Positions 22,722 through 38,806 of a DNA stretch of 64,000 nt are shown in pieces. Position 1 is the first letter of the stretch. Every line of letters begins with the position of its first letter. Where the stretch lies: the NCBI GenBank assembly GCA_963674745.2, contig CAXXDV010000003.1:672001-736000 (forward strand), written 5' to 3'. The position numbers were made by a program, and so were the translations under genes. The stretch is from Desulfosudaceae bacterium. GTDB taxonomy: Bacteria > Desulfobacterota > Desulfobacteria > Desulfobacterales > Desulfosudaceae. Below the pieces are notes generated by a model, which worked only from the letters and a program-made list of their open reading frames with translations, ran no database searches and was not told the origin of the DNA.

Positions 22722-24146
22722 ATGAATGATATGACATCGTCAAAAGCGAAAGAGATGCTTTTGTCCGTCAGCCAGGGCGCTGTCGGCCTTTTTGTCAGCA
22801 TTGTCAGCCTGGTTATCATAGAGCGGACGTATGGCGAAAAAGGTCTGGGCACTTTCTCTTTTCTGATTTCCCTTTACATTCTTTCGGGATTTATCACCGA
22901 ATTCGGTATGGCCGGTCTGGTTGAACGGGAAACGGCCATCAACAGCGGCAGAAAAGAGATCCTTTTGCGGGAAGCCTACTGCGCCCTTTTCTGGTGGGGC
23001 TTTTTGTTTACTGTTCTGTTTGTCCTGACAGCCGTCTACGATGCCTCCTGGACAAAAGTTGATGAAAAACGTATGGCTTATCTGATCATTGCCTTAACCT
23101 TCCCCATCAGAAACCTCAACAAACTCAGGCTGGCCGTTCTAGACGGCAGTAAACATCACGACCAGGCGGCCATGTTGCGGCTGCAAAAGCATCTGATATT
23201 TATTTTTGCGGTTTTCTGGCTGGCACTGATTGAAATTCCCGTCTCCTTTCTGACCCTGGGGTTTCTGGCTGCTGAGATCGGACAGGCCGGTTTTGCAAAA
23301 AAACACCTTCGGCTGCCGCCGCTGTCAAACCTGTGGCGTCCGTTTGGGGCCATACCCCGGACGCTGAAACAGGGATATCAATATATTTTTACTGACGAAG
23401 CACTGGATGTGGTTCTGTACATGGACTTTTTTATCCTTGGCTTTTTTGTTTCGTCGTGGAATCTGGGGATTTATGCCGAAGCCTCGGTGCTGGTGAAGAT
23501 TTTTTTGCTGATCCCCATGTGTTTGAAGCCCATTTACCGGGAGAGCTATTGCGAGCAGGCCGCCCTGGAATGTCATGAAGATCTGGCCGCCCGGGTGCGA
23601 CGGACATCGACCTGGATTTTTTTTCTTCACGCCCTCGTCGGGCTGTATATGCTGATATATTATCCCAGGGTGATCAACTGTCTGTTTGATTTTCACGGAC
23701 AGCGGGAAATCTCTTTCCGGTTGTTTGCCACCCTGCTGCCCGGTCTGCTCTATTTTTCTGCTGTTATTGTCAGGGAACCGGTTTATGAGGCCGTGGGCCG
23801 ATCCGGGGCACTTCAGCAGATCATTATTTTAATCGCCGTTGTGAATGCGGTTCTTAATTTTTATTTTATTCCCTTTGCCGGTCATTTTGGGGCCGCTTTT
23901 TCAACCGCCACGGCCCTGCTGGTTTATTTCTTTGTTTTTGATTACGATCTCGATCCGGTATATAAAACCGATCGAATGCTATATATTGTCGCCGGTGCCG
24001 CCATTTACCTGATTTATATGTTGTTTTCACATGTCAAGGTGAAGCCCGCCATCAGTTTCTGGTTGATTCCGGCGGTGTTGTTTGTGTTGCTGGTGTTGAC
24101 CGGGTTCTTTACGACTGGAAACAAAGAAGAGGGAAAAAACCCTTGA
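22722..24146 (+). CDS. Wzx/MOP-superfamily oligosaccharide flippase-like protein
   Basis: Many TM segments; RTYGEKGLGTF, MDFFILG..LGIY, NAVLNFYFIP.AGHFGAA motifs. Confidence 0.8.
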   Translation: MNDMTSSKAKEMLLSVSQGAVGLFVSIVSLVIIERTYGEKGLGTFSFLISLYILSGFITEFGMAGLVERETAINSGRKEILLREAYCALFWWGFLFTVLFVLTAVYDASWTKVDEKRMAYLIIALTFPIRNLNKLRLAVLDGSKHHDQAAMLRLQKHLIFIFAVFWLALIEIPVSFLTLGFLAAEIGQAGFAKKHLRLPPLSNLWRPFGAIPRTLKQGYQYIFTDEALDVVLYMDFFILGFFVSSWNLGIYAEASVLVKIFLLIPMCLKPIYRESYCEQAALECHEDLAARVRRTSTWIFFLHALVGLYMLIYYPRVINCLFDFHGQREISFRLFATLLPGLLYFSAVIVREPVYEAVGRSGALQQIIILIAVVNAVLNFYFIPFAGHFGAAFSTATALLVYFFVFDYDLDPVYKTDRMLYIVAGAAIYLIYMLFSHVKVKPAISFWLIPAVLFVLLVLTGFFTTGNKEEGKNP

Positions 24147-24177
24147 GCTTAAAAATCTATAGACAAGGAGCCAAACC

Positions 24178-25269
24178 ATGGAAGATCAAGAGGTCATTAA
24201 AAGGGTGCCTGAAATACCCCGGAATTTTAAAAGAATTAAAATCCCGAAGATCAGGATTTCGGGCAAGCTGGGATTGATTATCCTCTTTCTGGCGGTCATT
24301 GTCGTTCTTTACAATTCTTTTCTGGTTTATGTCGGTCCCAATGAGTACGGGATCAAACAGGTGAAAATCGGTACAAACCGGGGCATCCAGAAAAAGACTT
24401 TTACGCCGGGACTTCATATTATCATTCCGGTGTTTCAACGCATGCATTATCTGCCGAAAGATGCCCAGGTGTTGGAGCTGACCAATTATCCCGCTACCGC
24501 CTCCCGCTATGCGCGAAGGGAACGGGCGGCCCACATCCAGACATCGGACGGATTTTTTGTGGATGTCGATGTTTCCATCCTTTATCACATTGCAGATCCT
24601 TACAAGGTGTTCACCATGATCGGCCCGGGCACCCTGTTTGAAGACAACGGCATTATCCCCAAAACCGAACCGGCCTTAAAAGACACCCTTGGTAAGTTGA
24701 CCACCGAGGAGTTTTACAACAGCCCCCTGCGGGTCGAACGGGCTCTGGCGGCCAAGGAGAAACTGAACCAGGAGTTAAACGAAAAAGGCATTGCCGTTGA
24801 CCAGGTTCTGGTCCGGTATTTCAAATACAGTGATGAAATTCAGAAAAATATCGAAGAGAAAAAGTTAAAAGACCAGCTGGTGTTTAAGAATCAGGCCGAA
24901 GCCCGGGCGGCGACTGAAGAAGCCACGCTCAAAAAGATCGAGCAGGAAGGAAAAGTCAACGTATCAGTGGAGATGGAAAAAGGCAGCGCCTATGTTACCA
25001 GAAAGCGGGCGGAAAAAGACCTTTATGCCCGAAGTAAACGGGCGGAAGCCGATTTGCTGGTCAAACTGGCCGAAGCCGAGAAAGTCCGGCTTAAAAACGA
25101 GGCCCTTAAAGGCGCCGGCGCCGAGCGGATGGTCGGTCTTAAAATGGCTGAAGTGTATCAGGGCCTGGAACTGATCATCCTGCCCAGCGACGGCCCGTCC
25201 GGCGTCAACCCCCTGGATCTGGATAATGCCCTCAATCTGTTTGATGTCCGCAAAGGAGGTGCCAAATGA
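24178..25269 (+). CDS. SPFH (band 7/prohibitin) domain protein with N-terminal TM
   Basis: PGLH, QTSDGFFVDVDVSILY, coiled-coil C-terminus. Confidence 0.88.
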   Translation: MEDQEVIKRVPEIPRNFKRIKIPKIRISGKLGLIILFLAVIVVLYNSFLVYVGPNEYGIKQVKIGTNRGIQKKTFTPGLHIIIPVFQRMHYLPKDAQVLELTNYPATASRYARRERAAHIQTSDGFFVDVDVSILYHIADPYKVFTMIGPGTLFEDNGIIPKTEPALKDTLGKLTTEEFYNSPLRVERALAAKEKLNQELNEKGIAVDQVLVRYFKYSDEIQKNIEEKKLKDQLVFKNQAEARAATEEATLKKIEQEGKVNVSVEMEKGSAYVTRKRAEKDLYARSKRAEADLLVKLAEAEKVRLKNEALKGAGAERMVGLKMAEVYQGLELIILPSDGPSGVNPLDLDNALNLFDVRKGGAK

Positions 25270-26300
25270 GAAAAATGATGATTACCATAATGCTGTTGAT
25301 GATATTGCCATTAACGCAGGCCTGTGTCCCCCATACCACCGGTGAAACCGAAGTCGGGGTCCAGGTCAAGAAACTGGCTTTGTGGGGTGAAAAAGGCGTG
25401 TCCGACAGGATATTCTCTCCAGGTTCAACCTTCTTTTTTCTCCCCTTTATAAATGACTGGTACACCTTCGACACCAAACTGCAGAACATGGAAATGACCT
25501 TTCAGCGAACACGGGGCGACCGGCCCACCCAGGACGACCTGTTATTTAAAACCATCGACGGTAATGATATCGGTCTGGACGTGATTATCGCCTATCGCAT
25601 CATGCCGGAAAAGGCGCCCTATATTCTGCAGTATGTGGCTGAAAACGATGATACCCTGAGGGATAAAATCGTCAGGACCATTGCCCGCAGCAAACCCAGG
25701 GATATTTTCGGCGAACTGAAAACCGAAGATTTTTATATTGCCAAAAATCGTGAAGCCCAGGCTCAGGAAGTCAAGAAACAACTACAGGCCATGTTTGACC
25801 CCATGGGTGTTATCATTGAAAGGGTTTTGACTAAGGATTACCGGTTTAACCCGGCCTATCAGAAGGCCATTGAAGACAAGAAAGTGGCCGATCAGATGGT
25901 GGAAAAAAACCGCTCCGCCCAGCACGCCACGCAAGAGGAGTACCTGCGCAAATTGGAACAGGCCAAAGGCGAGGTCAATAAAATGGTGGCCGATATTGAC
26001 GGTGAATACCTGAAAGCCAAAATCGAAGTGGATGCCTACTATGAGAAGCAGAAGCTCATCGCCCAGGCTATAAAAGCCGAAGGTATTGCCGAGGCCCAGG
26101 GCATTCAGGAAATGAACACCGCCATGGCCAGCGCCGGCGGAGAGGCCTTTGTCAAACTGAGAATCGCCGAGTCCCTGCAGGGCAAGGAAATTTTTCTGCT
26201 GCCGGTTTCTGAAGGCGGAATGAACCTGAAAACCACCGACATCAATGACCTGATCAACACCATGGGGATTAAAAAACTGTCGGACAAAAGCAGGAAATGA
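25266..26300 (+). CDS. SPFH domain protein, probable lipoprotein
   Basis: Signal with LTQAC; KTIDGNDIGLDVIIAY; YQKAIEDK; ATGA overlap with the upstream gene. Confidence 0.88.
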   Translation: MRKMMITIMLLMILPLTQACVPHTTGETEVGVQVKKLALWGEKGVSDRIFSPGSTFFFLPFINDWYTFDTKLQNMEMTFQRTRGDRPTQDDLLFKTIDGNDIGLDVIIAYRIMPEKAPYILQYVAENDDTLRDKIVRTIARSKPRDIFGELKTEDFYIAKNREAQAQEVKKQLQAMFDPMGVIIERVLTKDYRFNPAYQKAIEDKKVADQMVEKNRSAQHATQEEYLRKLEQAKGEVNKMVADIDGEYLKAKIEVDAYYEKQKLIAQAIKAEGIAEAQGIQEMNTAMASAGGEAFVKLRIAESLQGKEIFLLPVSEGGMNLKTTDINDLINTMGIKKLSDKSRK

Positions 26301-26934: not shown

Positions 26935-27098
26935 GGCGGACTCCTTATTACGTTCAATTGTTTTGAGACATTTTTATCATGAAACCGTATCGTTTTCCAG
27001 AGACATGTGTTGAAAAACAGGCGGTGGTATTCTATTATCAGTCCGTATCAAGAGGGGGACTTAGGTTATCCGGTAATAAAATGCAAGAAGGAGCAGCA

Positions 27099-27935
27099 AT
27101 GAAATGGAGACAGTTTTTCACGCCTGTTAAATCCATGGACAGCGCACAAGCCCGGGAGATGATTGAGAACACGCCCCGGGAAGATATTTCTATTATTGAT
27201 GTGCGTCAGCCCGGTGAGTATAAGTCCGGTCATATTCCCGGCGCCCGTTTGATCCCGGTGGGTGAACTGGGTAACCGGCTGAACGAAATACCGGCTGATA
27301 AACCGGCTGTGGTTTATTGTGCTGTCGGCGGCCGCAGCCGGGTAGCGGCCCAGATGATGGCCGCCAAAGGGTTTTCCGATGTCATTAACCTGGCCGGAGG
27401 TTTCAAGGCCTGGAAGGGTAATGCGGCTGTCGGACCGGTGGACCAGGGCCTGGATTTTTTTTCAGGTCAGGAAACCATCGACCAGATACTGGCGGTGGCT
27501 TATTCCATTGAAGATGGTTTAAGGGATTTTTATCTCATCATGGCCGAAAAGGTCCGAAACGCTGAAGCCGCCGACCTGTTTGCAAAACTGGCGGAAATAG
27601 AAGTCAAACACCAGGATCGCGTCTACGGGATTTATAAAGCCCTGGCCGACCAGCCTATGCCAAGGGAGGCTTTTGTCACCGACCGGGTCGGTAATGTGAT
27701 TGAAGGCGGCCTGACGACCGAAGCCTATATCGCCATGTTCAAACCCGATATGGAATCGGTTGTCGATATTATCAGCCTGGCCATGTCCATCGAAGCCCAG
27801 GCCCTGGATCTTTATTCCCGGGCGGCTGAAGCGGTTACCCCTCCTGAGGGGCAGAAGGCGCTGGCACAGCTGGCCGATGAGGAACGGACGCATATCAGGC
27901 GGCTGGGAGAATTGATTGATGGGCTGTCTGAATAA
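27099..27935 (+). CDS. Rhodanese domain + ferritin-like (rubrerythrin) domain fusion
   Basis: IDVRQPGEY..GHIPGA, YCAVGGRS, NLAGGFKAW; then two E..FY/LY...LAxxExxH half-domains. Confidence 0.88.
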   Translation: MKWRQFFTPVKSMDSAQAREMIENTPREDISIIDVRQPGEYKSGHIPGARLIPVGELGNRLNEIPADKPAVVYCAVGGRSRVAAQMMAAKGFSDVINLAGGFKAWKGNAAVGPVDQGLDFFSGQETIDQILAVAYSIEDGLRDFYLIMAEKVRNAEAADLFAKLAEIEVKHQDRVYGIYKALADQPMPREAFVTDRVGNVIEGGLTTEAYIAMFKPDMESVVDIISLAMSIEAQALDLYSRAAEAVTPPEGQKALAQLADEERTHIRRLGELIDGLSE

Positions 27936-27942
27936 TACAGGC

Positions 27943-27999
27943 TCTTCTCCAATTTAATGTGCACAAAGGGTTCAAGGATTCAAGGGGTCGAGGGCTCAA
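27943..27999. repeat. Dispersed intergenic repeat, copy 2
   Basis: Matches 7095..7143 with one extra 8-nt unit (ATTCAAGG). Confidence 0.8.
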
Positions 28000-28054
28000 G
28001 TGTTTGTCATTGAAAGTTTTATGAATGCTAAACACATAATTTTTACAAAAGTTC

Positions 28055-29194
28055 ATGAAAGGTCCGGATATGGGGCATCTAGTATTAGCTGGCGGCGGTC
28101 ATGCCCACATGGTAACGCTGGAACATATTGATGATTTTGTCGGTCGCGGACACCGGGTCACGGTTATCGGCCCTTCGCCATATCATTATTATTCGGGTAT
28201 GGGGCCGGGCATGCTGGGTGGTTTTTATTCTCCGGACGATATCCGTTTTGCTACCCGACTGGTTACTGAAAAAAAAGGCGGGACGTTCGTGCATGACAGG
28301 GTTGAGCGTATCGACCCTGCAGAGAAAAGAGTCCACCTGGCATCCGGTGACACCATTGATTATGACGTTCTCTCCTGTAACCTGGGCAGTCAGGTGCCTG
28401 GGGATCTGATTACAAACGATTATGGTGACATCTACGCGGTCAAACCCATCGAAAAACTGCTTGAAGCACGGCAGCGGGCCATCGAAATCATGTCCGACAA
28501 TCAGGCTTCTATCGCTGTTGCCGGCGGTGGGCCGGCGGCATCCGAGATCGCGGGTAATATTTATCACCTGGCCAAAACCACGGGCAAGGCCATGCCTACC
28601 ATATACATGTGTGCCGGAAAAGGGTTTATGGGCCGGTTTCCTGAATCGGTCCGCAGCCGTGTTTATCACTCGCTGACCGAACGGGGTATTATTGTTGATG
28701 AATCCGGTTACGTTAAATCCATCGAAACCGGTGCCGTCACACTTGAGTCGGCTAAGATTATCGCCGCGGACCTGATTTTTGTGGCCCTGGGGGTGAAGCC
28801 ATCGCCGGTTTTCGCCGCTTCCGGTCTGCCGCTCGGTCCTGACGGCGGCCTGCTGGTCAACCAATTCCTGCAATCGCCGAAATATCCCGAAATTTTCGGC
28901 GGCGGTGACTGTATCTATTTTGAACCCCGTCCACTTGACAAGGTCGGTGTTTTTGCGGTCCGGCAGAATCCTGTTCTGTGTCATAATTTGATGGCAACCC
29001 TTGAAGACCAATCGTTGAAACCGTTTGACCCGGGCGGAGATTACCTGCTGATTTTCAACCTGGGCGATCGCCGGGGCGTGCTCAAAAAGAAATGGCTGAC
29101 CTTCAGCGGCCGGTCGGCATTCATGCTCAAGGATTATATCGACCGCCGGTTCATGAAAAAATTCCAGCGCATGGAGAAAAGTCAAAAGGCTTAA
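28055..29194 (+). CDS. FAD/NAD(P)-dependent pyridine nucleotide-disulfide-type oxidoreductase (resembles the N-terminal domain of SelD fusions)
   Basis: LAGGGHAH, YSGMGPG, VKPIE, GGGPAASE, GGGDC, KVGVFAVRQ, LKDYIDRRFM. Confidence 0.85.
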   Translation: MKGPDMGHLVLAGGGHAHMVTLEHIDDFVGRGHRVTVIGPSPYHYYSGMGPGMLGGFYSPDDIRFATRLVTEKKGGTFVHDRVERIDPAEKRVHLASGDTIDYDVLSCNLGSQVPGDLITNDYGDIYAVKPIEKLLEARQRAIEIMSDNQASIAVAGGGPAASEIAGNIYHLAKTTGKAMPTIYMCAGKGFMGRFPESVRSRVYHSLTERGIIVDESGYVKSIETGAVTLESAKIIAADLIFVALGVKPSPVFAASGLPLGPDGGLLVNQFLQSPKYPEIFGGGDCIYFEPRPLDKVGVFAVRQNPVLCHNLMATLEDQSLKPFDPGGDYLLIFNLGDRRGVLKKKWLTFSGRSAFMLKDYIDRRFMKKFQRMEKSQKA

Positions 29195-29253: not shown

Positions 29254-29940
29254 TCAGGGGTAGTATTTTTTCAGTTTTTCCGGATGAACACCGGCGTAGA
29301 ACAGGGTGGATAATATCCAGTTACGCAGGGTGGTATAAATCAGGCCTTCTTTTTTCCAGCGCCGGGCGGAAGTCGTCACCGGCTCGGGGATCAACCGGAT
29401 GCGATAACCGCGTTTCTTGATTCGCCGCATGAGGTCGATATCTTCCATGAGCGGCATCTCTGTAAACCCGCCCAGTTCCCTGAAACAGCCGGCTTTTATG
29501 AATATGGCCTGATCACCGTAAGGGATATGTGTGAGGCGGGAGCGAATCGAGGCGGCCTTTTCGATGATTCGAAAAGCCGGTCCGGGCGCATCTATGGCAA
29601 GGTCAAAGGCCCCGCCCACGGTCCCTGAATCGCGACAAACGTCCAGGATCGACCTGACAGCGGTTTCGGGCAGAATCGTGTCAGCATGAAGAAACAGCAG
29701 GATCTCTCCGGCGGCTTTTTCCGCGCCGGCGTTCATCTGGACGCTTCGGCCTGATGAGGCCTTTGTTTTGGTGACATCCGGGTCGGCAATCGCCCGCAGG
29801 GTGGTCTCCGACGGGTCTCCATCCACCACGATGATTTCCGTATCGGCATTTTTGTCCGTTGTCTTTATTTGAACAATTGTCCGATTGATCCGGTCAGCCT
29901 CGTCAAGCGCGGGGATAATTATGGATATCATCGGTTTCAT
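29254..29940 (-). CDS. TIGR04283-type GT2 glycosyltransferase (rSAM/selenodomain-associated, 'arsenosugar' family)
   Basis: SIIIPAL.E, GRSVQMNAGA, LFLHADT, PYGDQAIF, LMED, TSARRW. Confidence 0.92.
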   Translation of the reverse strand: MKPMISIIIPALDEADRINRTIVQIKTTDKNADTEIIVVDGDPSETTLRAIADPDVTKTKASSGRSVQMNAGAEKAAGEILLFLHADTILPETAVRSILDVCRDSGTVGGAFDLAIDAPGPAFRIIEKAASIRSRLTHIPYGDQAIFIKAGCFRELGGFTEMPLMEDIDLMRRIKKRGYRIRLIPEPVTTSARRWKKEGLIYTTLRNWILSTLFYAGVHPEKLKKYYP

Positions 29941-29966
29941 AAGCCGGTAGAACGGTTCGGAATCGG

Positions 29967-30770
29967 TCAGGGCTGGTCAGCGTTCGTGCCTGATTTGAAA
30001 ATGATATCGCCGTAAAAGGCGGTTGTTGCCTCGCCGGTGTTGTCTGAATCGGTCATGATGGCCACCCCGGAAATCATGGGGGGCGGCTGACCGAAACTGT
30101 CCACATAATCCTGATAGATATTTCTTTCTTCATTGACCCAGGTACCGGCCTTGTCCGGTCCGCTTTCCACGACAATCATCATGACCCGGTCGGTATAGGG
30201 GTTGGTTACCCGGGTGCCTTTTGCCGTCCGGCTTTCCCAGATATAATTGATGGCTCCGATGGGGGGATACTCGCCGTAAAGAATCCGGACTGTCTCAAAT
30301 TTTGCCTTTTCCAGAAACCCCACCCGATCGGCGTCATACTCAAAAGCAATATATATCCGGACCGGATAGTCATCACCGCTTTTTTTGGTAACATCTCCGT
30401 TTTCATATACACCGGTGATTTTCCAGTTCCACTGGATGACGGGATATTCCCGCGGGTCAATCCGCATTTTACGGATCAGCCCGGAAGCCGAAGCCTTGCT
30501 TTTGGCCCGGATGACGGTTTTCCCGTCTTCAACAACCGCTTCATACAGGGTATGATTGTCGATTTTTTTGAACGTCAACGGCTCCCAGTTTTCCGGAAGC
30601 CGGTCGGCCGCAGCGACAGCATTGGAAAAATCGCCCACCTTCAACACCTCTTCAGCTTTGATCCATCCGGGCTGAAAAAGTGCCATCAGGATAACCGCCA
30701 GTCCGCATAATGATATATTCTTTATATCGTTCATTTGTTGTAACCCCGTTGGTTGTATTACAGTCATCAC
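29967..30770 (-). CDS. DUF3047 domain exported protein
   Basis: SKASASGL, WNWK, DDYPVRIY, INYIW, AIMTDSDNTG motifs; start uncertain (30770 GTG or 30734 ATG). Confidence 0.87.
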   Translation of the reverse strand: MMTVIQPTGLQQMNDIKNISLCGLAVILMALFQPGWIKAEEVLKVGDFSNAVAAADRLPENWEPLTFKKIDNHTLYEAVVEDGKTVIRAKSKASASGLIRKMRIDPREYPVIQWNWKITGVYENGDVTKKSGDDYPVRIYIAFEYDADRVGFLEKAKFETVRILYGEYPPIGAINYIWESRTAKGTRVTNPYTDRVMMIVVESGPDKAGTWVNEERNIYQDYVDSFGQPPPMISGVAIMTDSDNTGEATTAFYGDIIFKSGTNADQP

Positions 30771-31459
30771 TTGATCTTTGCCTGTTGCAGGTAAGCCCGG
30801 GTGTGTTTGGCCAGCCCGGGGACTTCTTTCAGCGTCAGTGACAGGTTGTCAAGGTCTACGATGGTGTCAATATCCCGCCAGACCGGCAATATTATGGGCA
30901 CGATACCATTATCCCGGAACCGCTTCAGGGTGTTACTCAAAACCGTATCCGTTCCCCAGGAAATGTTGTCAAAAATTTCCGGTAGAAAACCGTCTGCCGT
31001 AAATCCGATCAGGTAATATCCGCCGTCCCGGCTGGGCCCGATGACGGCCGAGTTTTCCTTTAAACGATCAAAGGCTTCATCGATAATTTCCGGCAAAAGA
31101 TCGGGTAAATCAGAACCGATGATAATGGCCCGTTTAAAGCCCGCAAAAAATGTTTCAGCCAGGGCGTTTTTCATTTTTTCGCCCAGATTGTCGCCAGTTT
31201 GCGGGAAAATATCAAACCCGTCGCCCAGCCAGGACCGGATTTGATCGCCGGCCCGGGCCGGATAATAATAGACGCTGATATTCAAGCCGGTGGATTGAGC
31301 CATGGTCAGGACATCCGCAACAAAGCATCGATAGAGTTCCAGGGCGGCCGCATCACCGATTGATTCGGCCAGACGGGTTTTGACCGCGCCTTTTATTGGT
31401 GCCTTGAGAAAAAGAATAATGCGGAAGTCTTCTGATGTTTCATTTTGTTGTGTTGTCAT
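30767..31459 (-). CDS. TIGR04282-type (DUF2064) transferase (rSAM/selenodomain-associated, 'arsenosugar' family)
   Basis: KAP..GAVKTRL, QTGDNLGEKM, IIGSDLP, GPSRDGGYYLIG, WGT, DIDT..DL. Confidence 0.92.
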   Translation of the reverse strand: MTTQQNETSEDFRIILFLKAPIKGAVKTRLAESIGDAAALELYRCFVADVLTMAQSTGLNISVYYYPARAGDQIRSWLGDGFDIFPQTGDNLGEKMKNALAETFFAGFKRAIIIGSDLPDLLPEIIDEAFDRLKENSAVIGPSRDGGYYLIGFTADGFLPEIFDNISWGTDTVLSNTLKRFRDNGIVPIILPVWRDIDTIVDLDNLSLTLKEVPGLAKHTRAYLQQAKIK

Positions 31460-31464
31460 AAGGC

Positions 31465-32988
31465 TTACTTGACGAATTCAAAGCTCTGATCAAAAAGGTC
31501 AGGGTCTGAAAAATAGGCTTTGCCGACCAGTTTCAATGCATGATGGCTGCGCTGGCGCATGCTGCCGACCTTGGGAATCCCCATGGAAAAAAGCAATAGC
31601 GGCTCTATGCGTTTTGAATTTTTGGCGATGCCGTGCCGGTTGAACATGCTTGCAAAGGTGCCGTCGGACGCGGGCAGCATCTCAAGAGACTTATAAGGGA
31701 CAAGCCGGTAGGGGATGTCCTTTGCCGGGGGCGGTTCGTAAGACAGACCGACCACCTGGTGCCAGTCGGCGTTGACATGGACATTGAGCGGGGTCCCGGA
31801 GAAGGATTCCGGCAGTCCGGCTGGCGCAAAGGCGTCTATGGTCAGGGACTGCGGTCTGACGGCCTTGACGGACCCGTCGGCCGGGACAAAAAAATGGTAA
31901 CAGCCGCAGTTGTTCATGATATCCACCATCACCGGCCGTCCGTCCTGCCCCAGGCTGATGCGGAAGGTCAGCCCGTCCAGCGTTCCTCTTTCAATCGATG
32001 GCGCGCCGGGTCCTGTCCGGGCCGGATACCACACCACATAGTTGATTTGAAGAACCGGTTGTCCGTTATAAAAGGCATTGGTGAAATAATAGTACATGGT
32101 CGGCCGGTCACCGGCCACGATGATATTATGCTCCTGCCATTTGATGGCACCGATACGGTCGTCATCACCACGGATATCCTGGGTCAGAACCGGCGCGAAG
32201 GCTGTGGCCAGCACCTGTTGGGTGTTTTCATTGGGTCGGGGGACGGACAGGGCATTGTTTGATGCTTTGAGTATCATCCGTTTGATCTCCTCGGTCGAAA
32301 GATCATAGCGCTGGTCCGGTATATAGGAAATCCAAGTCCCCCCGGGCAAAATGTTGTCAGTTTTCCTGTTGAGCCAGCGCGTCATCCGTTTATGGGCTTT
32401 TTTGGTCAGAAAAGCGACCGGCAGGGCGGCCAGGGGATAGACCCCGGCCACACGCATGGTGGTTTTATATTCACTCGGGCATTGGACCGCCTCTGACAAG
32501 GATTCATAAAATCCAGGCAGACTTCGATGTGCGGACAGCAGGCTGGCGGCACACGTTTCGGCATGGGTGGATAATGCCGCGATCGTGGGTGATAAACCCG
32601 CCCTGTCTGCCAGTTCTTGTCGTGCCTGTTTTGGCAGGCAGGCAATCTCGGTGTATCTGGCCCTGGTGTCCCGGGCTCGCATCCAGTCGACCCATACATC
32701 TTTTTCCGCCTGATTGGCAACACGGTTTTTCAGTCCGCATAAAAAACGGTCGGTTCTAAGATACGGAAAACCTTCCAGCCGGAACACGGCGGCATTGTTG
32801 ACACCCGCCTCGGCCACTGCTTTATCCAGGTCCATAAGAAAAGCCGCGCTGGCGGCTGTATCATCGCCAGCCGGAAAAACAGAGGGTTTTACACCCGGCG
32901 CGCAGGCACTTAAAGACAGTGCGCCTATGATGATAATGAACAGAATTTGAAACCGTTGTTTAAACTGTTTCGTGCTTAAAAATCTCAT
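31465..32988 (-). CDS. Uncharacterised lipoprotein
   Basis: Lipobox LSAC; motifs FPYLR, QINYVVWYP.R, NNCGCYHFF, MRQ..HHA. Confidence 0.8.
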   Translation of the reverse strand: MRFLSTKQFKQRFQILFIIIIGALSLSACAPGVKPSVFPAGDDTAASAAFLMDLDKAVAEAGVNNAAVFRLEGFPYLRTDRFLCGLKNRVANQAEKDVWVDWMRARDTRARYTEIACLPKQARQELADRAGLSPTIAALSTHAETCAASLLSAHRSLPGFYESLSEAVQCPSEYKTTMRVAGVYPLAALPVAFLTKKAHKRMTRWLNRKTDNILPGGTWISYIPDQRYDLSTEEIKRMILKASNNALSVPRPNENTQQVLATAFAPVLTQDIRGDDDRIGAIKWQEHNIIVAGDRPTMYYYFTNAFYNGQPVLQINYVVWYPARTGPGAPSIERGTLDGLTFRISLGQDGRPVMVDIMNNCGCYHFFVPADGSVKAVRPQSLTIDAFAPAGLPESFSGTPLNVHVNADWHQVVGLSYEPPPAKDIPYRLVPYKSLEMLPASDGTFASMFNRHGIAKNSKRIEPLLLFSMGIPKVGSMRQRSHHALKLVGKAYFSDPDLFDQSFEFVK

Positions 32989-33238
32989 CTGTCTTTAGTC
33001 CTTTCGGAATTTTAGACCTTTTTAAATACCCTCCTAACTGATCATCAGATGTTTTTGACCGGTATTTTAATTTTATATAAGGTCTGTTGCCATCATTCGG
33101 ATGAAATCCGGTTTGGAGGTGTTCTCTTTCAAAGTTTTTTAGTTCTCTGAACGAGCCGTTGTTCTCGACGTAAACATATGGGTAAGGTATTTGTAGAGCC
33201 TCTTCTGGTGAAACAATTGCGCGAGAAAGTTTGTTCAT
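32960..33238 (-). CDS. Small AT-rich hypothetical protein
   Basis: 92-aa ORF, visibly more AT-rich than neighbours; overlaps the lipoprotein start by 29 nt. Confidence 0.6.
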   Translation of the reverse strand: MNKLSRAIVSPEEALQIPYPYVYVENNGSFRELKNFEREHLQTGFHPNDGNRPYIKLKYRSKTSDDQLGGYLKRSKIPKGLKTDEIFKHETV

Positions 33239-33354
33239 ATCTCTTTTAATTTGTGTTGTCCGCAGTGTGTTATTTTATTATCCCCTCATAATTGATTCTG
33301 CCTGATTTTTTGCGAAATTCAAGAGATTTATCCATAATTGTTTCCGCCCGTTAG

Positions 33355-33382
33355 AAGGGCACCCACAGGGGGGTGCCCCTAC
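33355..33382. repeat. GTAG-type REP (exact inverted copy of 26381..26408)
   Basis: AAGGGCACCCACAGGGGGGTGCCCCTAC. Confidence 0.85.
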
Positions 33383-33423
33383 AGTTTTACGGTTTGCGTT
33401 TTGCAGAATGAATCAAGAGCCCG

Positions 33424-33480
33424 GGGCATATTTTACAGGTGGCTTAAACCGCCGGCTATATGCCCACATCCCTTCGGGAT
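33424..33480. repeat. Double-hairpin extragenic palindrome
   Basis: GGGCATAT...ATATGCCC stem enclosing GGTGG-cttaaa-CCGCC, then ATCCC-ttc-GGGAT. Confidence 0.6.
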
Positions 33481-33496
33481 AAATTTGTACCGCCAA

Positions 33497-36400
33497 TTAA
33501 ATTTTAAAATAGGGGCAATCCTTCTGGATACACTCCCTGTTCCTGCCCTGCTGGCGGCACTGAACATCTCCGTCGGCCTTTAATGGCAGGGGCAGGTAGG
33601 TCTCGGATAATTCAGCCGCCGCCTTTAAAGCCGTCCAGACCTCACGCTGACAGCAGCGGGCGGCTTCCGTCCGGTTCAATCGGCTGATAATGGCTTCGGA
33701 AACCTTTTGAATGATCTGGCGGGGGCCGGGTGCGAGCGGGTTGCTTTTTAAAATAATGCCAAAGGCGATACCCACGCCCACGGCCGCGCCGCAGGTACCC
33801 CAGAATCCGCAGGCCCCGCCGGGTACGGCGCGTCCCCGTTCAATGGCGGTAACAATATCCTTTTCGGTCAGGTCGCCCCCCAGGTTTTTGTAAGTCGCGG
33901 TAATTACCCCCGGTACCGCAAAATGGTGCTCGGGACCGTGAACGGAAAAAGCCGGGTGCCGTCTGAGTTGATTGATCAGGTCGATCATGTCCACTAAGTC
34001 GGTATGGGTACAGACATGTTTGACAATATCGACCATGTCGCTGCCATGGCAACTGTCACAGACAAAGTGACCGTCTTCGCAGGCCGCGTTGGCCATGAGT
34101 TTATTCCCGCAGAAAACGCAGGTTTCCTGCCGGTCTTCGGAAAAATAGATCAGTGGCTTACCGCACAGCATGCAATCCCGACTGTGTTTTGGATCATTGT
34201 TCATAAAAAGAGCTGTAACGGGGGCCGGTTTGTCCCCGGCCGATCGACTGTCCTCAGGCGGAACGGAACAGTCACAACTCACAGCACCTTCAGGTGGTAT
34301 GCCACAGCTGCAGGCATTGGCTGCTTCTATGTTGTCGACATTGCCCATGGCATCGAGTTTGAAAATCGCTGAATCACCCTGGGCGTCATAGGGCCAGTTA
34401 ATTTCCGATACCTGTCCCCGCAGCAATAACTCTCCATCGTCGGTTACCACGGCCGCGTAAGGACCGGGATACATGGCCGGGGATTTTTCTTCCGGCATGG
34501 GCCGAAAGGCCGTATAGGTGACCGAATAAAAGTGGTGCCCCAGGACTTCTTTGTAGAAAAAACGTTTGACGATGCGGATATGGCAGAACCCGGCCGATTC
34601 CAGGATGGCGATCAGATGGGGCTGGACCAGGGCGCCGGCAATGCATTCTCCGCGCAGTTTGGCATCATTCTGAATGGCCGGCGGGCAGGGGGTGTCGGTG
34701 ACGACGTCGGAAATGAAGATCCGTCCCCCGGGCGTAAGAACTCGGAATATCTCGGAAAATGTCCGGCGCTTATCTTCGGAAAGGTTGATCACACAGTTGG
34801 ATATGACCACGTCAACCGTTTTGTCGCTTACGGGAAGCTGCTCGAGAAAGCCCTTTTTAAATTCGACGTTCCGGTATCCCAGGTTATCGGCCACTTCATC
34901 CATGGGGCGCCGGGCCAGGGCCAGCATATTGTCCAGCATATCGATGCCTGTCACCGAACCTTTCGGTCCGACCTTGCGGGCGGCAATGTAACATTCGACC
35001 CCGGCGCCCGAACCCAGGTCAACAACTGTTTCACCGGGTTTAATGGCGGCATCCAGCACCGGGCTGCCGCATCCGTATGAGCGGATCCGGGCTGCGGGCG
35101 GGATGTGCGGCATCTCGGCATCGGGATAACAGACCGGGTTGGTGATGTCTGTGTTCTCATCTTCTGCGGCGGTGGAATAAAATTCGCCGACAACCCCGCG
35201 GGTGCCGGAGAAAGTCAGTACGCAGTTGGAATGGGTCAGGGCAACACCTTCCCCTTCCTGAATGCAGTGCAGCAGTTTTTCCCCCATTTTTCGCCGGATC
35301 TGGGGCCAGGGCCGTTCTTCGACAATTTGGGCGGATTGAACCATCAGCCACAATGCCAGACGATTATAGAGCGGTACATAAGGATCATGACCGACATAGG
35401 CACCACCGGCATAATAGCTGTGGTCAATGTCGCCACCGCCGATGATATATTTCAGGGGGTTGGCATTGTAGTTGGTATCGCTCACGATGGATAATTCCCG
35501 AAGGGACGCCAGCGCCGGACTGTTTCGCCAGACGTTTTCCAGGTTTTCGGAAATGTGACCGCAGACCGTGTCTTTGCGGCCGATCAAGGCGGGGGTGGGG
35601 TAAACACTGCCGTTCGGGCCGATGGCCAGCGACTCCCAGCCGGCATTGCCAAGATCGTATCTGGTCCCCGGCGTGGAAAACACCTGGGCTGACAGGTTGG
35701 AGATATTATCGATGGTCACATTGTTTTTTTTCGCCAGGGCATGAGATTGAACCAGGTCGGAAAACAGTGCGTCGGCCGGCACATACGACAGGCCGGATGC
35801 CCGTCCGGTGTTCAGCAGCCACATGTAGTGGACGCTGTTGATGTTGTGCCGTGCGGCCAGTGACACCATGTCCGTCATCTGGTGCCGGTTATCGGGCGTA
35901 ACCGCCATGGAAAGGGTCGTCTGGAGGCCCAGCCCGTCAAGGGCCGTCAGCCCGTTTACGATTTTTGCAAATGATCCCTTGCCTCGCAGGTCGTCGTTGA
36001 CATCTTCAAGTCCGTCCAGGCTGACCTGGAGAAAAAGCCGGTCGGATGGCAGCGACTGTAAAAAGGACCGTTGTTCCGGTAGTAAAATGCCGTTGGTCAG
36101 GATGGCCAGCATGGTATCGGGAAAATCAAACAGAACCAGACGGCATATCTGTTGAAAGTCCGGATGAACAAGGGGCTCTCCACCGGTCAGGTAAAAGACG
36201 CGGGTGCCCAGGCCGTATGCATCAGAAACAACCGTCTTGATCGATTCCAGGGAAAGCGTCGTCTGTGTCTTTGCCGAGCATGAAAACAGGCAATGACGGC
36301 AGGACAGGTTGCATTGATCGGTAATATGCAGCCAGCATTCTTTCAAGTGGTTCAGTTGCAGAGCGCCGGCACGTCCGTCATAATCTTCGATTTCCGGAGA

Positions 36401-36640
36401 CGTCAGCAGGGAAAGAAACTGGGTTACACGCATGATGTCCGCAAAATCGGTTCCGCCGGATGCTTTGGCATGATATCGGCGATCGCCGATAATCGCCATC
36501 TCACCATATTCGATTACATTCTGCAGCAAGCGGTCTCCGGTTGAACTGGGGACCATCCAGTCCGGCGTATCAGGCCGGATAAATACCGGTGTATTATCAA
36601 GTTCAAATCTTACCCAGTCCTCGAAACGGTTTTTCTTCAC
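33497..36640 (-). CDS. Radical SAM + degenerate SPASM-like + ArsM-like methyltransferase + Cys-rich (DUF5714-like) fusion protein
   Basis: CNLSCRHC, TGGEP, LTNG, SLDG; YGCGSP, DLGSGAG, SNCVINL, GECIAGA; CMLCG..CVFCG..CEDGHFVCDSCH, HGPEHH, GGACGFWGTCGAA, RCCQR. Confidence 0.9.
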   Translation of the reverse strand: MKKNRFEDWVRFELDNTPVFIRPDTPDWMVPSSTGDRLLQNVIEYGEMAIIGDRRYHAKASGGTDFADIMRVTQFLSLLTSPEIEDYDGRAGALQLNHLKECWLHITDQCNLSCRHCLFSCSAKTQTTLSLESIKTVVSDAYGLGTRVFYLTGGEPLVHPDFQQICRLVLFDFPDTMLAILTNGILLPEQRSFLQSLPSDRLFLQVSLDGLEDVNDDLRGKGSFAKIVNGLTALDGLGLQTTLSMAVTPDNRHQMTDMVSLAARHNINSVHYMWLLNTGRASGLSYVPADALFSDLVQSHALAKKNNVTIDNISNLSAQVFSTPGTRYDLGNAGWESLAIGPNGSVYPTPALIGRKDTVCGHISENLENVWRNSPALASLRELSIVSDTNYNANPLKYIIGGGDIDHSYYAGGAYVGHDPYVPLYNRLALWLMVQSAQIVEERPWPQIRRKMGEKLLHCIQEGEGVALTHSNCVLTFSGTRGVVGEFYSTAAEDENTDITNPVCYPDAEMPHIPPAARIRSYGCGSPVLDAAIKPGETVVDLGSGAGVECYIAARKVGPKGSVTGIDMLDNMLALARRPMDEVADNLGYRNVEFKKGFLEQLPVSDKTVDVVISNCVINLSEDKRRTFSEIFRVLTPGGRIFISDVVTDTPCPPAIQNDAKLRGECIAGALVQPHLIAILESAGFCHIRIVKRFFYKEVLGHHFYSVTYTAFRPMPEEKSPAMYPGPYAAVVTDDGELLLRGQVSEINWPYDAQGDSAIFKLDAMGNVDNIEAANACSCGIPPEGAVSCDCSVPPEDSRSAGDKPAPVTALFMNNDPKHSRDCMLCGKPLIYFSEDRQETCVFCGNKLMANAACEDGHFVCDSCHGSDMVDIVKHVCTHTDLVDMIDLINQLRRHPAFSVHGPEHHFAVPGVITATYKNLGGDLTEKDIVTAIERGRAVPGGACGFWGTCGAAVGVGIAFGIILKSNPLAPGPRQIIQKVSEAIISRLNRTEAARCCQREVWTALKAAAELSETYLPLPLKADGDVQCRQQGRNRECIQKDCPYFKI

Positions 36641-36664
36641 ATCAATCCTCTATAAAAATTCGGG

Positions 36665-38806
36665 TTATCCGCGTCGCCAGGCCAGGTAGCGTTGGACCAG
36701 GCCAAGGGCCTTTTCCGGCACCCGGGCTTTTTTCCACTCACCGGCCGCGAAACGGTTGGCCTCCGTCAGCGTGGGATAAATATGTATGGTGCCGAGCATT
36801 TTATTTAACCCGATATTGTGCTTCATGGCCAGGACAAATTCGGCGATCAGGTCGTCGGCCTGAGAACCGACGATGGTGACGCCAAGGATTGTATCTTTAC
36901 CCGGCCGGGTCAATACCTTGACAAACCCTCTGGCTTCCGAGTCGGTAATGGCCCGGTCAAGATCGTCAATATGATAACGGGTGATTTCATAGTCGATGTC
37001 GGCCGCTTGGGCTTCGGTTTCATTCAGGCCCACCCGGGCCACTTCCGGATCGGTAAACGTCGCCCATGGAATGACCCGGTAATCGATTTTGAATTTTTTG
37101 ATGCCGCCGAACAAGGCGTTTACAGCCGCGAACCAGGCCTGGTAAGCGGCCACGTGGGTGAACTGAAAGGGGCCGACCACGTCACCGGCGGCGTAAATAT
37201 TGGGCAGGGCGGTCTGCAACCGGTCATTGGTTTTGACGGTGCCGTTGGGATTGACCGCGACACCGATTTCTTCCAGGCCGAAGCCCCGGGTGTTGGCCCG
37301 GCGTCCCACAGCTACCAGCAGGGCGTCGAATTCAATGGTGACATCCCGGTCATCATGAAGGCAGACCAGTATTTTTTTGTCCTGTTCAACCCGGACTTCT
37401 TTGGCCTGGTGACGGGTCAGAACGGTTATGCCTTCTTCAATAAAGGTGTTTTTAATGAAATCCGCGACATCCTTGTCTTCACGGCCCATGATCTGGTGTG
37501 CCATCTCGACCTGTGTGACCCGGGAACCAAGACGCGCAAATGCCTGGCTAAGCTCGCAGCCGATGGGCCCGCCTCCCAGGACGACCAAGCGGTCGGGACG
37601 TTCCTTTAACGACCAGATCGTGTCGGATGTCAGGTAGTCGATCTGATCAAGGCCGGGAATAGGGGGTATCAATGGGCCGGCGCCGGTCGCTACCACGATG
37701 CTCCGGGTGGTGATGATCCTGTCGTTGACTTCGATTTCATAGGGGGAGGTAATCCGGGCCTGCCCGGAGATGCAGTCAACACCCAGATCGGTATACCGTT
37801 CGACGGAATCATGGGGTTCTATTTTTTTGATGATGTCTGTCACCCGCTGCATGACATCGGCAAACTCAAAATCCACCCGCGTCTGACGAAAACCGAATTC
37901 AGAGGCCCGGCGGGCGAAGTTCAGCATTCTGGCACTGCGGATCAGGGCTTTGCTGGGCACGCAACCGGTGTTCAGGCAGTCCCCGCCCATTTTGTCTTTT
38001 TCAATTAATGCCACGCCGGCCTTGACCGTGGCCGCGATATAAGCGGTCACCAGTCCGGCTGAGCCGGCCCCGATAACGACCAGGTTGTAGTCGAACCGGG
38101 ACGGTCGCCGGAAACGTGCCATCGCCCGCCTGTTCTTTACAAAATTCGTAAAGGCCCTGGCAACCCATGGAAACACGCCCAGCAGGGCAAACGAGGCGAT
38201 CAGTGCCGGTGAAAGAATGTCGCCCGGGGATTGGACCCGGGACAGCTGGGTACCGGCATTGATAAACACCAGTGTTCCGGGCAGCATGCCCACCTGGCTG
38301 ACGATATAGAACATGCCGGTCCGGATGGGGGTCAGTCCCATAACGACATTGATCACAAAAAACGGGAATATCGGCACCAGACGGAGGGTGAATAGGTAAA
38401 AGGGACCGTCTTTTTGAATGCCCTCATTGATCTTTTTCAACCGGTCGGCAAAACGGGTCTGGATATAATTTCTTAACAGAAAACGTGCCATCAGGAAGGC
38501 CAGGGTGGCACCGATGGTACTGGCAAAAGAGACAACGATCAGGCCGGTCAGCAGGCCGAACAACGCTCCTCCGGCCAGGGTCATAACAGCTGCTCCGGGA
38601 AGTGACAGGGCGGCCATGATGATGTAGGTGCCGGCATAGACGGCGATGGTCAGCAGGGTATGGTCGGTATAAAAAGCTTCCAGATCGGCCTGTCTGGCCT
38701 TGAGGTTGTCAAAGGTAATATGGTGGTGAAGCCCGGAGGCGAAAAACAGGGTAATCCCCAGGACAATCAGCACAAGCACAAGCAGTTTATAAAATCTACG
38801 GTTCAT
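36665..38806 (-). CDS. TVP38/DedA membrane domain fused to a flavoprotein disulfide reductase (Lpd/MerA-like)
   Basis: LSLPGA, LRLVPIFPF, GMLPGT (VTT/DedA); GAGSAG, GGDCLNTGCVP, GGGPIGCE, AAGDV, HIYPT..E. Confidence 0.92.
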   Translation of the reverse strand: MNRRFYKLLVLVLIVLGITLFFASGLHHHITFDNLKARQADLEAFYTDHTLLTIAVYAGTYIIMAALSLPGAAVMTLAGGALFGLLTGLIVVSFASTIGATLAFLMARFLLRNYIQTRFADRLKKINEGIQKDGPFYLFTLRLVPIFPFFVINVVMGLTPIRTGMFYIVSQVGMLPGTLVFINAGTQLSRVQSPGDILSPALIASFALLGVFPWVARAFTNFVKNRRAMARFRRPSRFDYNLVVIGAGSAGLVTAYIAATVKAGVALIEKDKMGGDCLNTGCVPSKALIRSARMLNFARRASEFGFRQTRVDFEFADVMQRVTDIIKKIEPHDSVERYTDLGVDCISGQARITSPYEIEVNDRIITTRSIVVATGAGPLIPPIPGLDQIDYLTSDTIWSLKERPDRLVVLGGGPIGCELSQAFARLGSRVTQVEMAHQIMGREDKDVADFIKNTFIEEGITVLTRHQAKEVRVEQDKKILVCLHDDRDVTIEFDALLVAVGRRANTRGFGLEEIGVAVNPNGTVKTNDRLQTALPNIYAAGDVVGPFQFTHVAAYQAWFAAVNALFGGIKKFKIDYRVIPWATFTDPEVARVGLNETEAQAADIDYEITRYHIDDLDRAITDSEARGFVKVLTRPGKDTILGVTIVGSQADDLIAEFVLAMKHNIGLNKMLGTIHIYPTLTEANRFAAGEWKKARVPEKALGLVQRYLAWRRG

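Follow-up and report, generated by a model that had tools for sequence, protein, structure and literature searches.

A radical SAM–ArsM–DUF5714 fusion in the place of ArsS in a TIGR04282/TIGR04283 cassette of a Desulfosudaceae bacterium

The cluster analyzed here comprises seven open reading frames (ORFs) at positions 29,254 to 38,806 of a 64,000-nucleotide stretch of a Desulfosudaceae bacterium genome (assembly GCA_963674745.2, contig CAXXDV010000003.1, positions 672,001 to 736,000; hereafter the window), in which two transferases, TIGR04282 and TIGR04283, accompany a fusion of an enzyme of the radical S-adenosylmethionine (SAM) type, an ArsM-like methyltransferase, and DUF5714 (Table 1). The radical SAM family to which this fusion belongs displaces ArsS, the radical SAM enzyme of arsenosugar-type cassettes, across genomes. 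All seven ORFs are encoded on the minus strand, as an earlier note on this DNA had described, but the same-strand run is interrupted by a 258-bp gap holding a repetitive extragenic palindromic (REP)-like hairpin. The cluster is more than a chance arrangement, because two genomes of the same family (loci L242 and L243) keep the DedA-reductase, fusion, TIGR04282, (DUF3047), and TIGR04283 genes as one run, with no gene between the fusion and TIGR04282. The first gene of the cluster follows, at a distance of 30 bp, an HNH gene that closes a housekeeping run, and a promoter and terminator scan (22 vs. 14.1 ± 3.7 and 34 vs. 21.8 ± 5.6 sites) found nothing specific where the cluster starts; a dedicated promoter or regulator is rejected on that ground.

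Table 1. Genes, predicted domains, and other features of the cluster, in window coordinates.
Feature	Position	Strand	Basis or remark
DedA/VTT membrane domain + class I pyridine nucleotide-disulfide reductase, 713 aa	36665..38806	-	family scans
rSAM-ArsM-DUF5714 fusion, 1047 aa	33497..36640	-	Radical_SAM 106-261, ArsM-like 485-710, DUF5714 873-1045
Predicted RRE/PqqD-like domain, three strands + three helices, residues ~7-80	36401..36622	-	model secondary structure; PqqD Pfam matches in relatives
Radical SAM core (C110/C114/C117) + SPASM-fold domain	35321..36358	-	alignments
Cys tail C459...H470-S/C471-x-C473	35216..35287	-	conserved columns in 59 relatives
ArsM domain with C524, C616, C666 (CmArsM 72/174/224)	34343..35194	-	alignment, fold match
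Zn-ribbon-like part + DUF5714, Cys/His-rich, weakly C_GCAxxG_C_C-like	33500..34189	-	family scans
REP-like hairpin, ~240 BLAST-detectable genomic copies	33344..33384	.	not part of the system
Small ORF, 92 aa, no family	32960..33238	-	37% GC
Lipoprotein, 507 aa, no family match	31465..32988	-	lipobox-like LSAC at 26-29
TIGR04282 (DUF2064, CofC-like nucleotidyltransferase fold)	30767..31459	-	195 bits, cut-off 134
DUF3047 exported protein	29967..30770	-	271 bits
TIGR04283 GT2-family glycosyltransferase	29254..29940	-	250 bits, cut-off 182

Misassembly does not account for the fusion, because 115 of the best 120 of its 1126 homologue matches span 98% or more of the query; identity across these 120 is 44–100%, and the named close homologues belong to Desulfobacter and Desulfobacterales. 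Among the cultured bacteria that carry the fusion are Desulfobacter hydrogenophilus, Desulfoluna, and Desulfosarcina ovata. In the predicted model (predicted local distance difference test, pLDDT, 84.5), residues 7–440 match the peptide maturase CteB (5wgg; Z 30.1, root-mean-square deviation 3.9, 406 residues, 17% identity), by which the radical part consists of a RiPP (ribosomally synthesized and post-translationally modified peptide) recognition element (RRE), a radical SAM core, and a SPASM fold. The CxxxCxxC motif is present in every aligned row covering that region, and profile likeness to ArsS stops at about residue 233, with ArsS on a long separate branch of the tree. The SPASM ligand positions are replaced (G331, A339, T349, Y391, N394, I400, D404, V422), leaving C360 as the only cysteine in residues 322–440; D404 and D419 are invariant (59/59 relatives), and H407 is found in 56/59. 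This loss is graded, since basal relatives retain five to seven cysteines in the second-cluster stretch. Thus, the description in the earlier note of a SPASM-type radical SAM enzyme unlike ArsS stands for the fold and for the distance from ArsS, but not for the auxiliary cluster ligands.

An RRE–radical SAM–SPASM architecture with CteB as the best fold match would also suit a RiPP maturase that acts on a precursor encoded elsewhere, its link to the transferases then reflecting shared ancestry or habitat. We regard this as very improbable: the SPASM cluster ligands are lost, it leaves unexplained both the exclusion of ArsS and the occupancy of the arsS slot described below, and a comparison of 979 small ORFs from 76 loci turned up no conserved precursor peptide, only pairs between close relatives, although one encoded at a distance may exist. 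The small ORF of the present cluster was itself rejected as a precursor peptide, given its absence from all 63 fusion loci compared, its low GC content (Table 1), and its mere four homologues (at ~50% identity); it follows the REP-like hairpin and is a low-GC foreign passenger gene. A tandem array of the hairpin also occurs elsewhere in the genome (G000:C3:1812999-1813361).

Beyond the SPASM-fold domain lies a short cysteine tail in which C459 is conserved in 55/59 relatives, and H470 and C473 in 59/59. This tail forms the C-terminus of the stand-alone and methyltransferase-first forms described below and is missing from generic RRE–radical SAM proteins, and therefore belongs to the radical enzyme, for which it is a candidate As(III)-thiolate presenting arm. 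The accessible parts of two reports describe ArsL as binding As(III) via C-terminal cysteines that hold no cluster (10.64898/2026.04.29.721666; 10.1101/2024.02.01.577332).

The methyltransferase domain has ArsM/AS3MT proteins as its best fold matches: in the model, residues 503–766 align with chain positions 49–346 of CmArsM (4fr0; Z 27.2), C-terminal domain included, and the SAM-binding motif is present (aligned to 5evj and 4kw7). Of the arsenic-binding cysteines, C524 and C616 are each conserved in 59/59 relatives and C666 in 58/59; at least three of four cysteines is the ArsM criterion in the part of the source available (PMC5552862). The N-terminal region at residues 500–501 reads CC in 16/59 relatives and T-N here (motif ITNP), with C504 variable; CC is replaced in the three-domain forms, including the present fusion, the equivalence to CmArsM Cys44 being drawn from the aligned range. 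Three-cysteine ArsMs can prefer methylarsenite (MAs(III)). Scored as a fusion domain, the methyltransferase reaches 234 bits vs. a cut-off of 263 (PRK11873) and 118 vs. 400 (AsSugarArsM), and scores far better on ArsM models than on other methyltransferase models.

The C-terminal DUF5714 shows a weak C_GCAxxG_C_C match in 24/49 members. Its own model is confident (pLDDT 95), but a fold search with that model gave no clear solved fold, the best being CyuA (Z 6.0) and split-Soret cytochrome c (Z 5.6), which is the range of common arrangements and points to no new fold and to no function. At one other locus, an extra divergent DUF5714 gene (L113:11580-12269) lies upstream of a fusion that already has one. 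The fusion contains no in-frame TGA, whereas many ArsS genes of the phylum (from 147 matches) have one (selenocysteine form). Within the radical SAM family, P0303, P0304, and P0311 carry the methyltransferase first; the methyltransferase–radical SAM pairing arose in both domain orders. The domain architecture and conserved cysteines are thus shown, and the fusion would, in our interpretation, stand in for both ArsS and ArsM.

The distribution of this family was surveyed in 401 genomes sampled evenly from the phylum Desulfobacterota (≥85% complete, the present genome included). TIGR04282 occurs in 210 of these and ArsS in 147, so that an arsenosugar-type cassette in an anaerobe is not the novelty that had been suggested. 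A single-sequence search with the radical SAM domain found 34 genomes, and a profile search, built in part from sequences of the surveyed genomes themselves, found 45 at E ≤ 1e-46. The new-family set was defined as the 40 genomes at ≥199 bits, leaving out five at ≤171 (G032, G126, G157, G173, and G276); arsS is present in three of these, and the one locus inspected (L238, in G032) has no cysteine tail and no transferase neighbors. Among the 210 genomes with TIGR04282, 135 encode ArsS only, 36 the new family only, three both (25.6 expected), and 36 neither; the 191 genomes without TIGR04282 include nine with ArsS and one with the new family. TIGR04282 accompanies the new family in 39 of its 40 genomes, compared with 210/401 overall, and in the fortieth a TIGR04283 gene (185 bits) adjoins it on a 4-kb contig. 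The two engines are therefore mutually exclusive, and the co-conservation of the fusion with the transferases that had been proposed is borne out. The corresponding Fisher p of 5e-17 treats kin as independent and overstates the case, because related genomes are not independent; both engine states are, however, found within families f17, f52, f55, f58, and f63, and within genus g60. A contig-wide search for the fusion returned at least 75 loci, of which 45 were ordinary ArsM matches with no radical SAM part and 30 were used. A second genome set, reached through fusion loci, comprises 30 genomes and extends to Nitrospirota, Acidobacteriota, Gemmatimonadota, and Planctomycetota. TIGR04282 is found in 28 of these 30 genomes (26 over cut-off) and ArsS in four.

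Five of the 40 new-family genomes encode a stand-alone radical SAM protein of 516–519 aa with no ArsM (L237:1323-4674, L253:977-3582, L234, L235, and L236), ending in GYCICF-A/S. In all five, the gene directly upstream is a TIGR04169-like AhpD gene (100–114 bits, just short of the cut-off of 120), and a transferase is no more than ~3 kb away; the order in L237 is TIGR04282, ahpD-like, radical SAM, TIGR04283. Among 40 arsS comparison loci, chosen from the 147 arsS genomes with longer contigs favored, 23 have such an AhpD neighbor, vs. 0 of 71 fusion loci. The stand-alone relatives thereby occupy the slot of arsS itself. TIGR04169 exceeds its cut-off in only 1/33 fusion genomes, which is also an arsS carrier. 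Given that the AhpD gene is absent beside fusions, DUF5714 may take over its role, and is a candidate redox module in place of the AhpD-like protein. A single origin of the stand-alone and fused forms was considered and is not shown by a quick tree.

The present genome (99.96% complete) has no arsS: the best TIGR04167 score is 50.1 bits vs. a cut-off of 300 and covers model positions 3–151 only, there is no match to DUF3641 (PF12345), the Cys/Sec domain at the ArsS C-terminus, although the same model was matched in the control Synechococcus, and there is no TIGR04169. A canonical arsS elsewhere in the genome is therefore rejected as the source for the transferases. The proposal that neither a separate arsS nor a separate arsM is present holds genome-wide for arsS but for arsM in the window only, since an arsR-arsM-arsF-arsG-acr3 operon lies ~640 kb from the cluster (G000:C3:59676-63435; L006). 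The ArsM of that operon scores 308 bits (cut-off 263) and keeps the N-terminal CC, unlike the ArsM domain of the fusion.

Both transferases score over the cut-offs of their models (Table 1). The TIGR04282 protein matches 3cgx (E 1e-43) and, weakly, the FbiD/CofC-type guanylyltransferase 7p97 (E 0.016); the TIGR04283 protein belongs to the GT2 family. In FastTree trees, transferases from fusion and arsS loci interleave, with 7–9 label changes. According to the accessible parts of the relevant papers, ArsS and ArsM start the arsenosugar pathway of Synechocystis (PMC8552651; PMC12159101). The transferase role that had been called established is thus credited to the literature only as far as these first steps by ArsM and ArsS; our literature search, which also covered parts of PMC13188914 (selenoprotein tables), PMC10456119, and 10.1101/2023.11.02.563126 and left subscription journals and primary ArsS papers largely outside its coverage, found no assay of TIGR04282 or TIGR04283 and neither named as catalyst. 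It likewise found no publication on the radical SAM–ArsM fusion, which primary ArsS papers or their supplements may discuss. In the arsS comparison loci, ArsM adjoins arsS in only 3/40.

The engine could occupy the same slot and yet make a different arsenical: a monomethyl or thio analogue, an ArsL-like aminocarboxypropyl adduct, or an RRE-held protein-tethered arsenical, from which the transferases would make a new organoarsenic glycoside or lipid. In its favor are a scaffold unrelated to ArsS past the first half of the barrel, the family's own invariant residues (D404, H407, D419), the missing fourth cysteine in the ArsM of the three-domain forms, and a second module of GT2, GT-C, rhodanese, and DedA genes that adjoins the fusion in 3–4/71 loci. 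We nevertheless consider a different arsenical unlikely, as the partner transferases are not a separate subfamily and the stand-alone forms share the AhpD-like neighbor of ArsS. In the present genome, genes of the second-module type form a separate locus (L007, G000:C3:1802997-1817339) that holds a TIGR04283-like gene scoring 162 bits (below the cut-off) together with an Fe-S/CCG-DedA fusion, a GT2, a membrane protein labeled by eye as GT-C-like, two rhodaneses, YedE, and a Se/S carrier. This locus may represent a second downstream module, as the fusion is flanked by its GT2, GT-C-like, and rhodanese genes in L095, L098, and L115.

The genes around the fusion are largely those around ordinary arsS. 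The neighbors of 63 fusion loci, many of them on short contigs, include DedA (19), the reductase (18), DUF3047 (5), TIGR04282 (17), and TIGR04283 (15), and those of the 40 arsS loci include the same genes in 16, 13, 3, 26, and 25 cases, respectively. DUF547 neighbors 6/71 fusion and 3/40 arsS loci, and a PiT phosphate transporter 8/71 and 2/40; the PiT neighbor of the fusions is counted in favor of the displacement of ArsS. The DedA-reductase is thus an accessory common to ArsS-type and fusion-type clusters, and DUF3047, for which there is no solved relative and no usable Atlas match, is an optional accessory of both. The DedA-reductase has a CLNTGC redox disulfide, no C-terminal CC, and no cysteine after residue 482. 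MerA has a C-terminal CC pair; identification as MerA is rejected on its absence and on a TIGR02053 score of 412 bits vs. 454, and the protein is probably a thiol/As(V) re-reducing partner.

The lipoprotein was rejected as a pathway step: it is absent from all 63 fusion and all 40 arsS loci, and among 59 loci of its own homologues only two have a cassette gene (one with TIGR04283 and DUF3047, one with arsS). It adjoins TIGR04282 in the same-genus genome G402 and is absent between the fusion and TIGR04282 in L242 and L243. Its Atlas matches are unnamed clusters only, and it is a widespread unnamed family, here a passenger in this genus. This family has 521 matches, no Pfam, and invariant-looking "DIMNNCGCYH" cysteines, and elsewhere has a MalY-like aminotransferase neighbor (labeled by eye) in 34/59 loci. 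Outside the cluster, the plus strand of the window encodes a rhodanese-rubrerythrin fusion and a SelD-N-terminus-like oxidoreductase (26979-29194), convergent towards the cluster, the latter at 257 bits on TIGR03169 (under the cut-off of 310). The SelD-N-terminus-like gene also flanks the cluster in L243 (at the other end) and L250, as well as two arsS loci, and is found in 0/63 wider fusion loci. Also in the window (22722-26300, plus strand) is a flippase-like membrane protein followed by two tandem SPFH/Band 7 proteins.

We place a probability of roughly 0.58 on the reading that this is a TIGR04282/TIGR04283 arsenosugar-type cassette in which an RRE–radical SAM–SPASM scaffold enzyme has displaced ArsS non-orthologously while performing the same chemistry; nature may thus have evolved this carbon–arsenic chemistry twice. 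Under this reading, the ArsM domain would methylate arsenite (As(III)) or MAs(III) to dimethylarsenite (DMAs(III)); because this domain lacks the N-terminal CC, the separate ArsM of the ars operon may supply MAs(III). The cysteine tail (C459/C473, with H470) would keep the methylarsenic thiolate in place at the radical SAM site, where the 5′-deoxyadenosyl radical, by analogy with ArsS, would add to arsenic to give 5′-deoxy-5′-dimethylarsinoyl-adenosine or a close analogue. In the accessible part of PMC13598754, ArsS is described as adenosylating DMAs(III) in a redox-neutral reaction with no net reductant; an ArsS-type reaction, being redox-neutral, would explain why the enzyme could dispense with the auxiliary clusters. 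Arsenic and thiols would be maintained in the reduced state by DUF5714 and the DedA-fused flavin reductase, a task that in ArsS cassettes falls to the TIGR04169 AhpD-like protein. TIGR04282 would activate the arsenoribose and TIGR04283 would transfer it to an alcohol or lipid, with DedA and DUF3047 handling the product at the membrane or envelope; the lipoprotein and the small ORF would have no part in the pathway. Of the interpretation in the earlier note, the non-ArsS engine, its co-conservation with the transferases, and the lack of arsS are supported, but the claims that prove overstated or unsupported are the established transferase role, the envelope components as the mark of a new pathway (given that DedA, the reductase, and DUF3047 adjoin ordinary arsS too), and the lipoprotein and small ORF as cluster components.

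Several observations weigh against the ArsS-displacement reading. Its chemistry is drawn from genomics, and the arsenosugar role of the transferases from NCBI model names. In the survey, 36 of the 210 TIGR04282 genomes have neither engine, among them four near-complete genomes (G037, G198, G253, and G374) in which both transferases exceed their cut-offs; there may be a third engine or a salvage role in such genomes. In the same-genus genome G402 (L250, G402:C26:1910-6009), the lipoprotein, TIGR04282, and DUF3047 are kept with no fusion, arsS, or over-cut-off TIGR04283, possibly as a decaying cassette. The transferases lie within ~10 kb of the fusion in a minority of loci, many of them on short contigs, and only 1–2 label changes are required by the starred branches in the trees of the transferases. 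The quick tree does not join the stand-alone forms to the fusions, its deep forks being open, and the RRE domain is conserved with a role that the reading leaves unexplained. No acr3, arsF, or arsG was found beside the 71 fusion loci, and arsR only once; none was found beside the 40 arsS loci either. Two members of the radical SAM family (P0306 and P0309) are fused to TusA-like domains instead of ArsM.

The last two points bear equally on a selenium, sulfur, or antimony cassette, or one for a non-arsenic metabolite (ArsS-type anaerobic cassettes included), in which the ArsM-like domain would be a thiol or selenol methyltransferase. Such a cassette would also fit the rhodaneses, YedE, and Se/S carrier around the second TIGR04283-like gene of the present genome, the SelD-N-terminus-like gene that adjoins the cluster both in the present genome and in L243 and L250, and the match of DUF5714 to the selenoprotein MbdU model (133 bits; cut-off 600). 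It is, in our view, decidedly unlikely: the methyltransferase has the ArsM cysteine set and C-terminal domain and scores far best on ArsM models, ArsS, which the new family excludes, is a proven arsenic enzyme, and the SelD-like gene is not found in the 63 wider fusion loci.

In the arsenic literature surveyed, ArsS and ArsL are the only radical SAM families described as forming C–As bonds. We suggest, tentatively and at less than even odds for the parts taken jointly, that a peptide-maturase scaffold gave rise to a third, independently evolved family of this kind, which would have shed its auxiliary Fe-S clusters stepwise, gained an arsenic-binding cysteine tail, undergone fusion to ArsM in both orders, and taken the place of ArsS repeatedly in Desulfobacterota, Nitrospirota, Acidobacteriota, Gemmatimonadota, and Planctomycetota, with one polypeptide channeling toxic DMAs(III) to the radical site to yield an undescribed, possibly thiolated arsenosugar or arsenolipid. 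If so, together with ArsS, such compounds would be made by ~45% of the genomes sampled from this anaerobic phylum, forming an unrecognized arm of the sediment arsenic cycle, and sediment anaerobes would be widespread producers of arsenosugars and arsenolipids, usually credited to algae and cyanobacteria. The displacement pattern also serves as a test for the role of the TIGR04282/TIGR04283 pair: two unrelated engines feed it, and its substrate should therefore be their common product.

Compared with the ArsM and ArsS cassette of Synechocystis PCC 6803 (TIGR04167/TIGR04169/TIGR04282/TIGR04283), the present system has the same two transferases over cut-off, the accessory set of ArsS cassettes (DedA, flavin disulfide reductase, DUF3047, DUF547, PiT), and a CxxxCxxC radical SAM protein paired with an As(III) methyltransferase. 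It differs in its radical SAM part of ~440 aa with RRE and SPASM fold, which has no DUF3641 and scores 50 vs. 300 bits on TIGR04167; in addition, the engine shares one chain with ArsM and DUF5714, no AhpD-like partner is present, and the system is known from genes alone. The ArsL and ArsM system for arsinothricin likewise joins a radical SAM enzyme with extra C-terminal cysteines to an ArsM acting on trivalent arsenic; however, no ArsL model is among the best 25 matches listed for the fusion, the tail here is C...H-S/C-x-C (reading C...HSNC) and that of ArsL RCCLKC, and the neighbors are glycosyltransferases rather than the ArsQ exporter. The RRE–radical SAM–SPASM maturases (CteB 5wgg, TigE 8vpo, SkfB 6efn, PqqE 6c8v) share the predicted fold over residues 7–440 and the N-terminal RRE, but here the auxiliary-cluster cysteines are lost, a cysteine tail is added, a methyltransferase is fused, and no precursor peptide was found in the 76 loci. 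ArsM/AS3MT proteins (CmArsM 4fr0, CrArsM 5evj, human 8xt7) share the fold with C-terminal domain, the SAM motif, and the equivalents of Cys 72/174/224, and differ in that the CC of the Cys44 region is replaced here (as in the three-domain forms) and that the domain is part of a larger enzyme outside an ars resistance operon. Thus, the cassette is common, and its engine is uncharacterized and unrelated to ArsS; a third C–As bond-forming family, built on the scaffold of a peptide maturase, would clearly exemplify convergent enzyme evolution and provide a single-chain organoarsenical biocatalyst.

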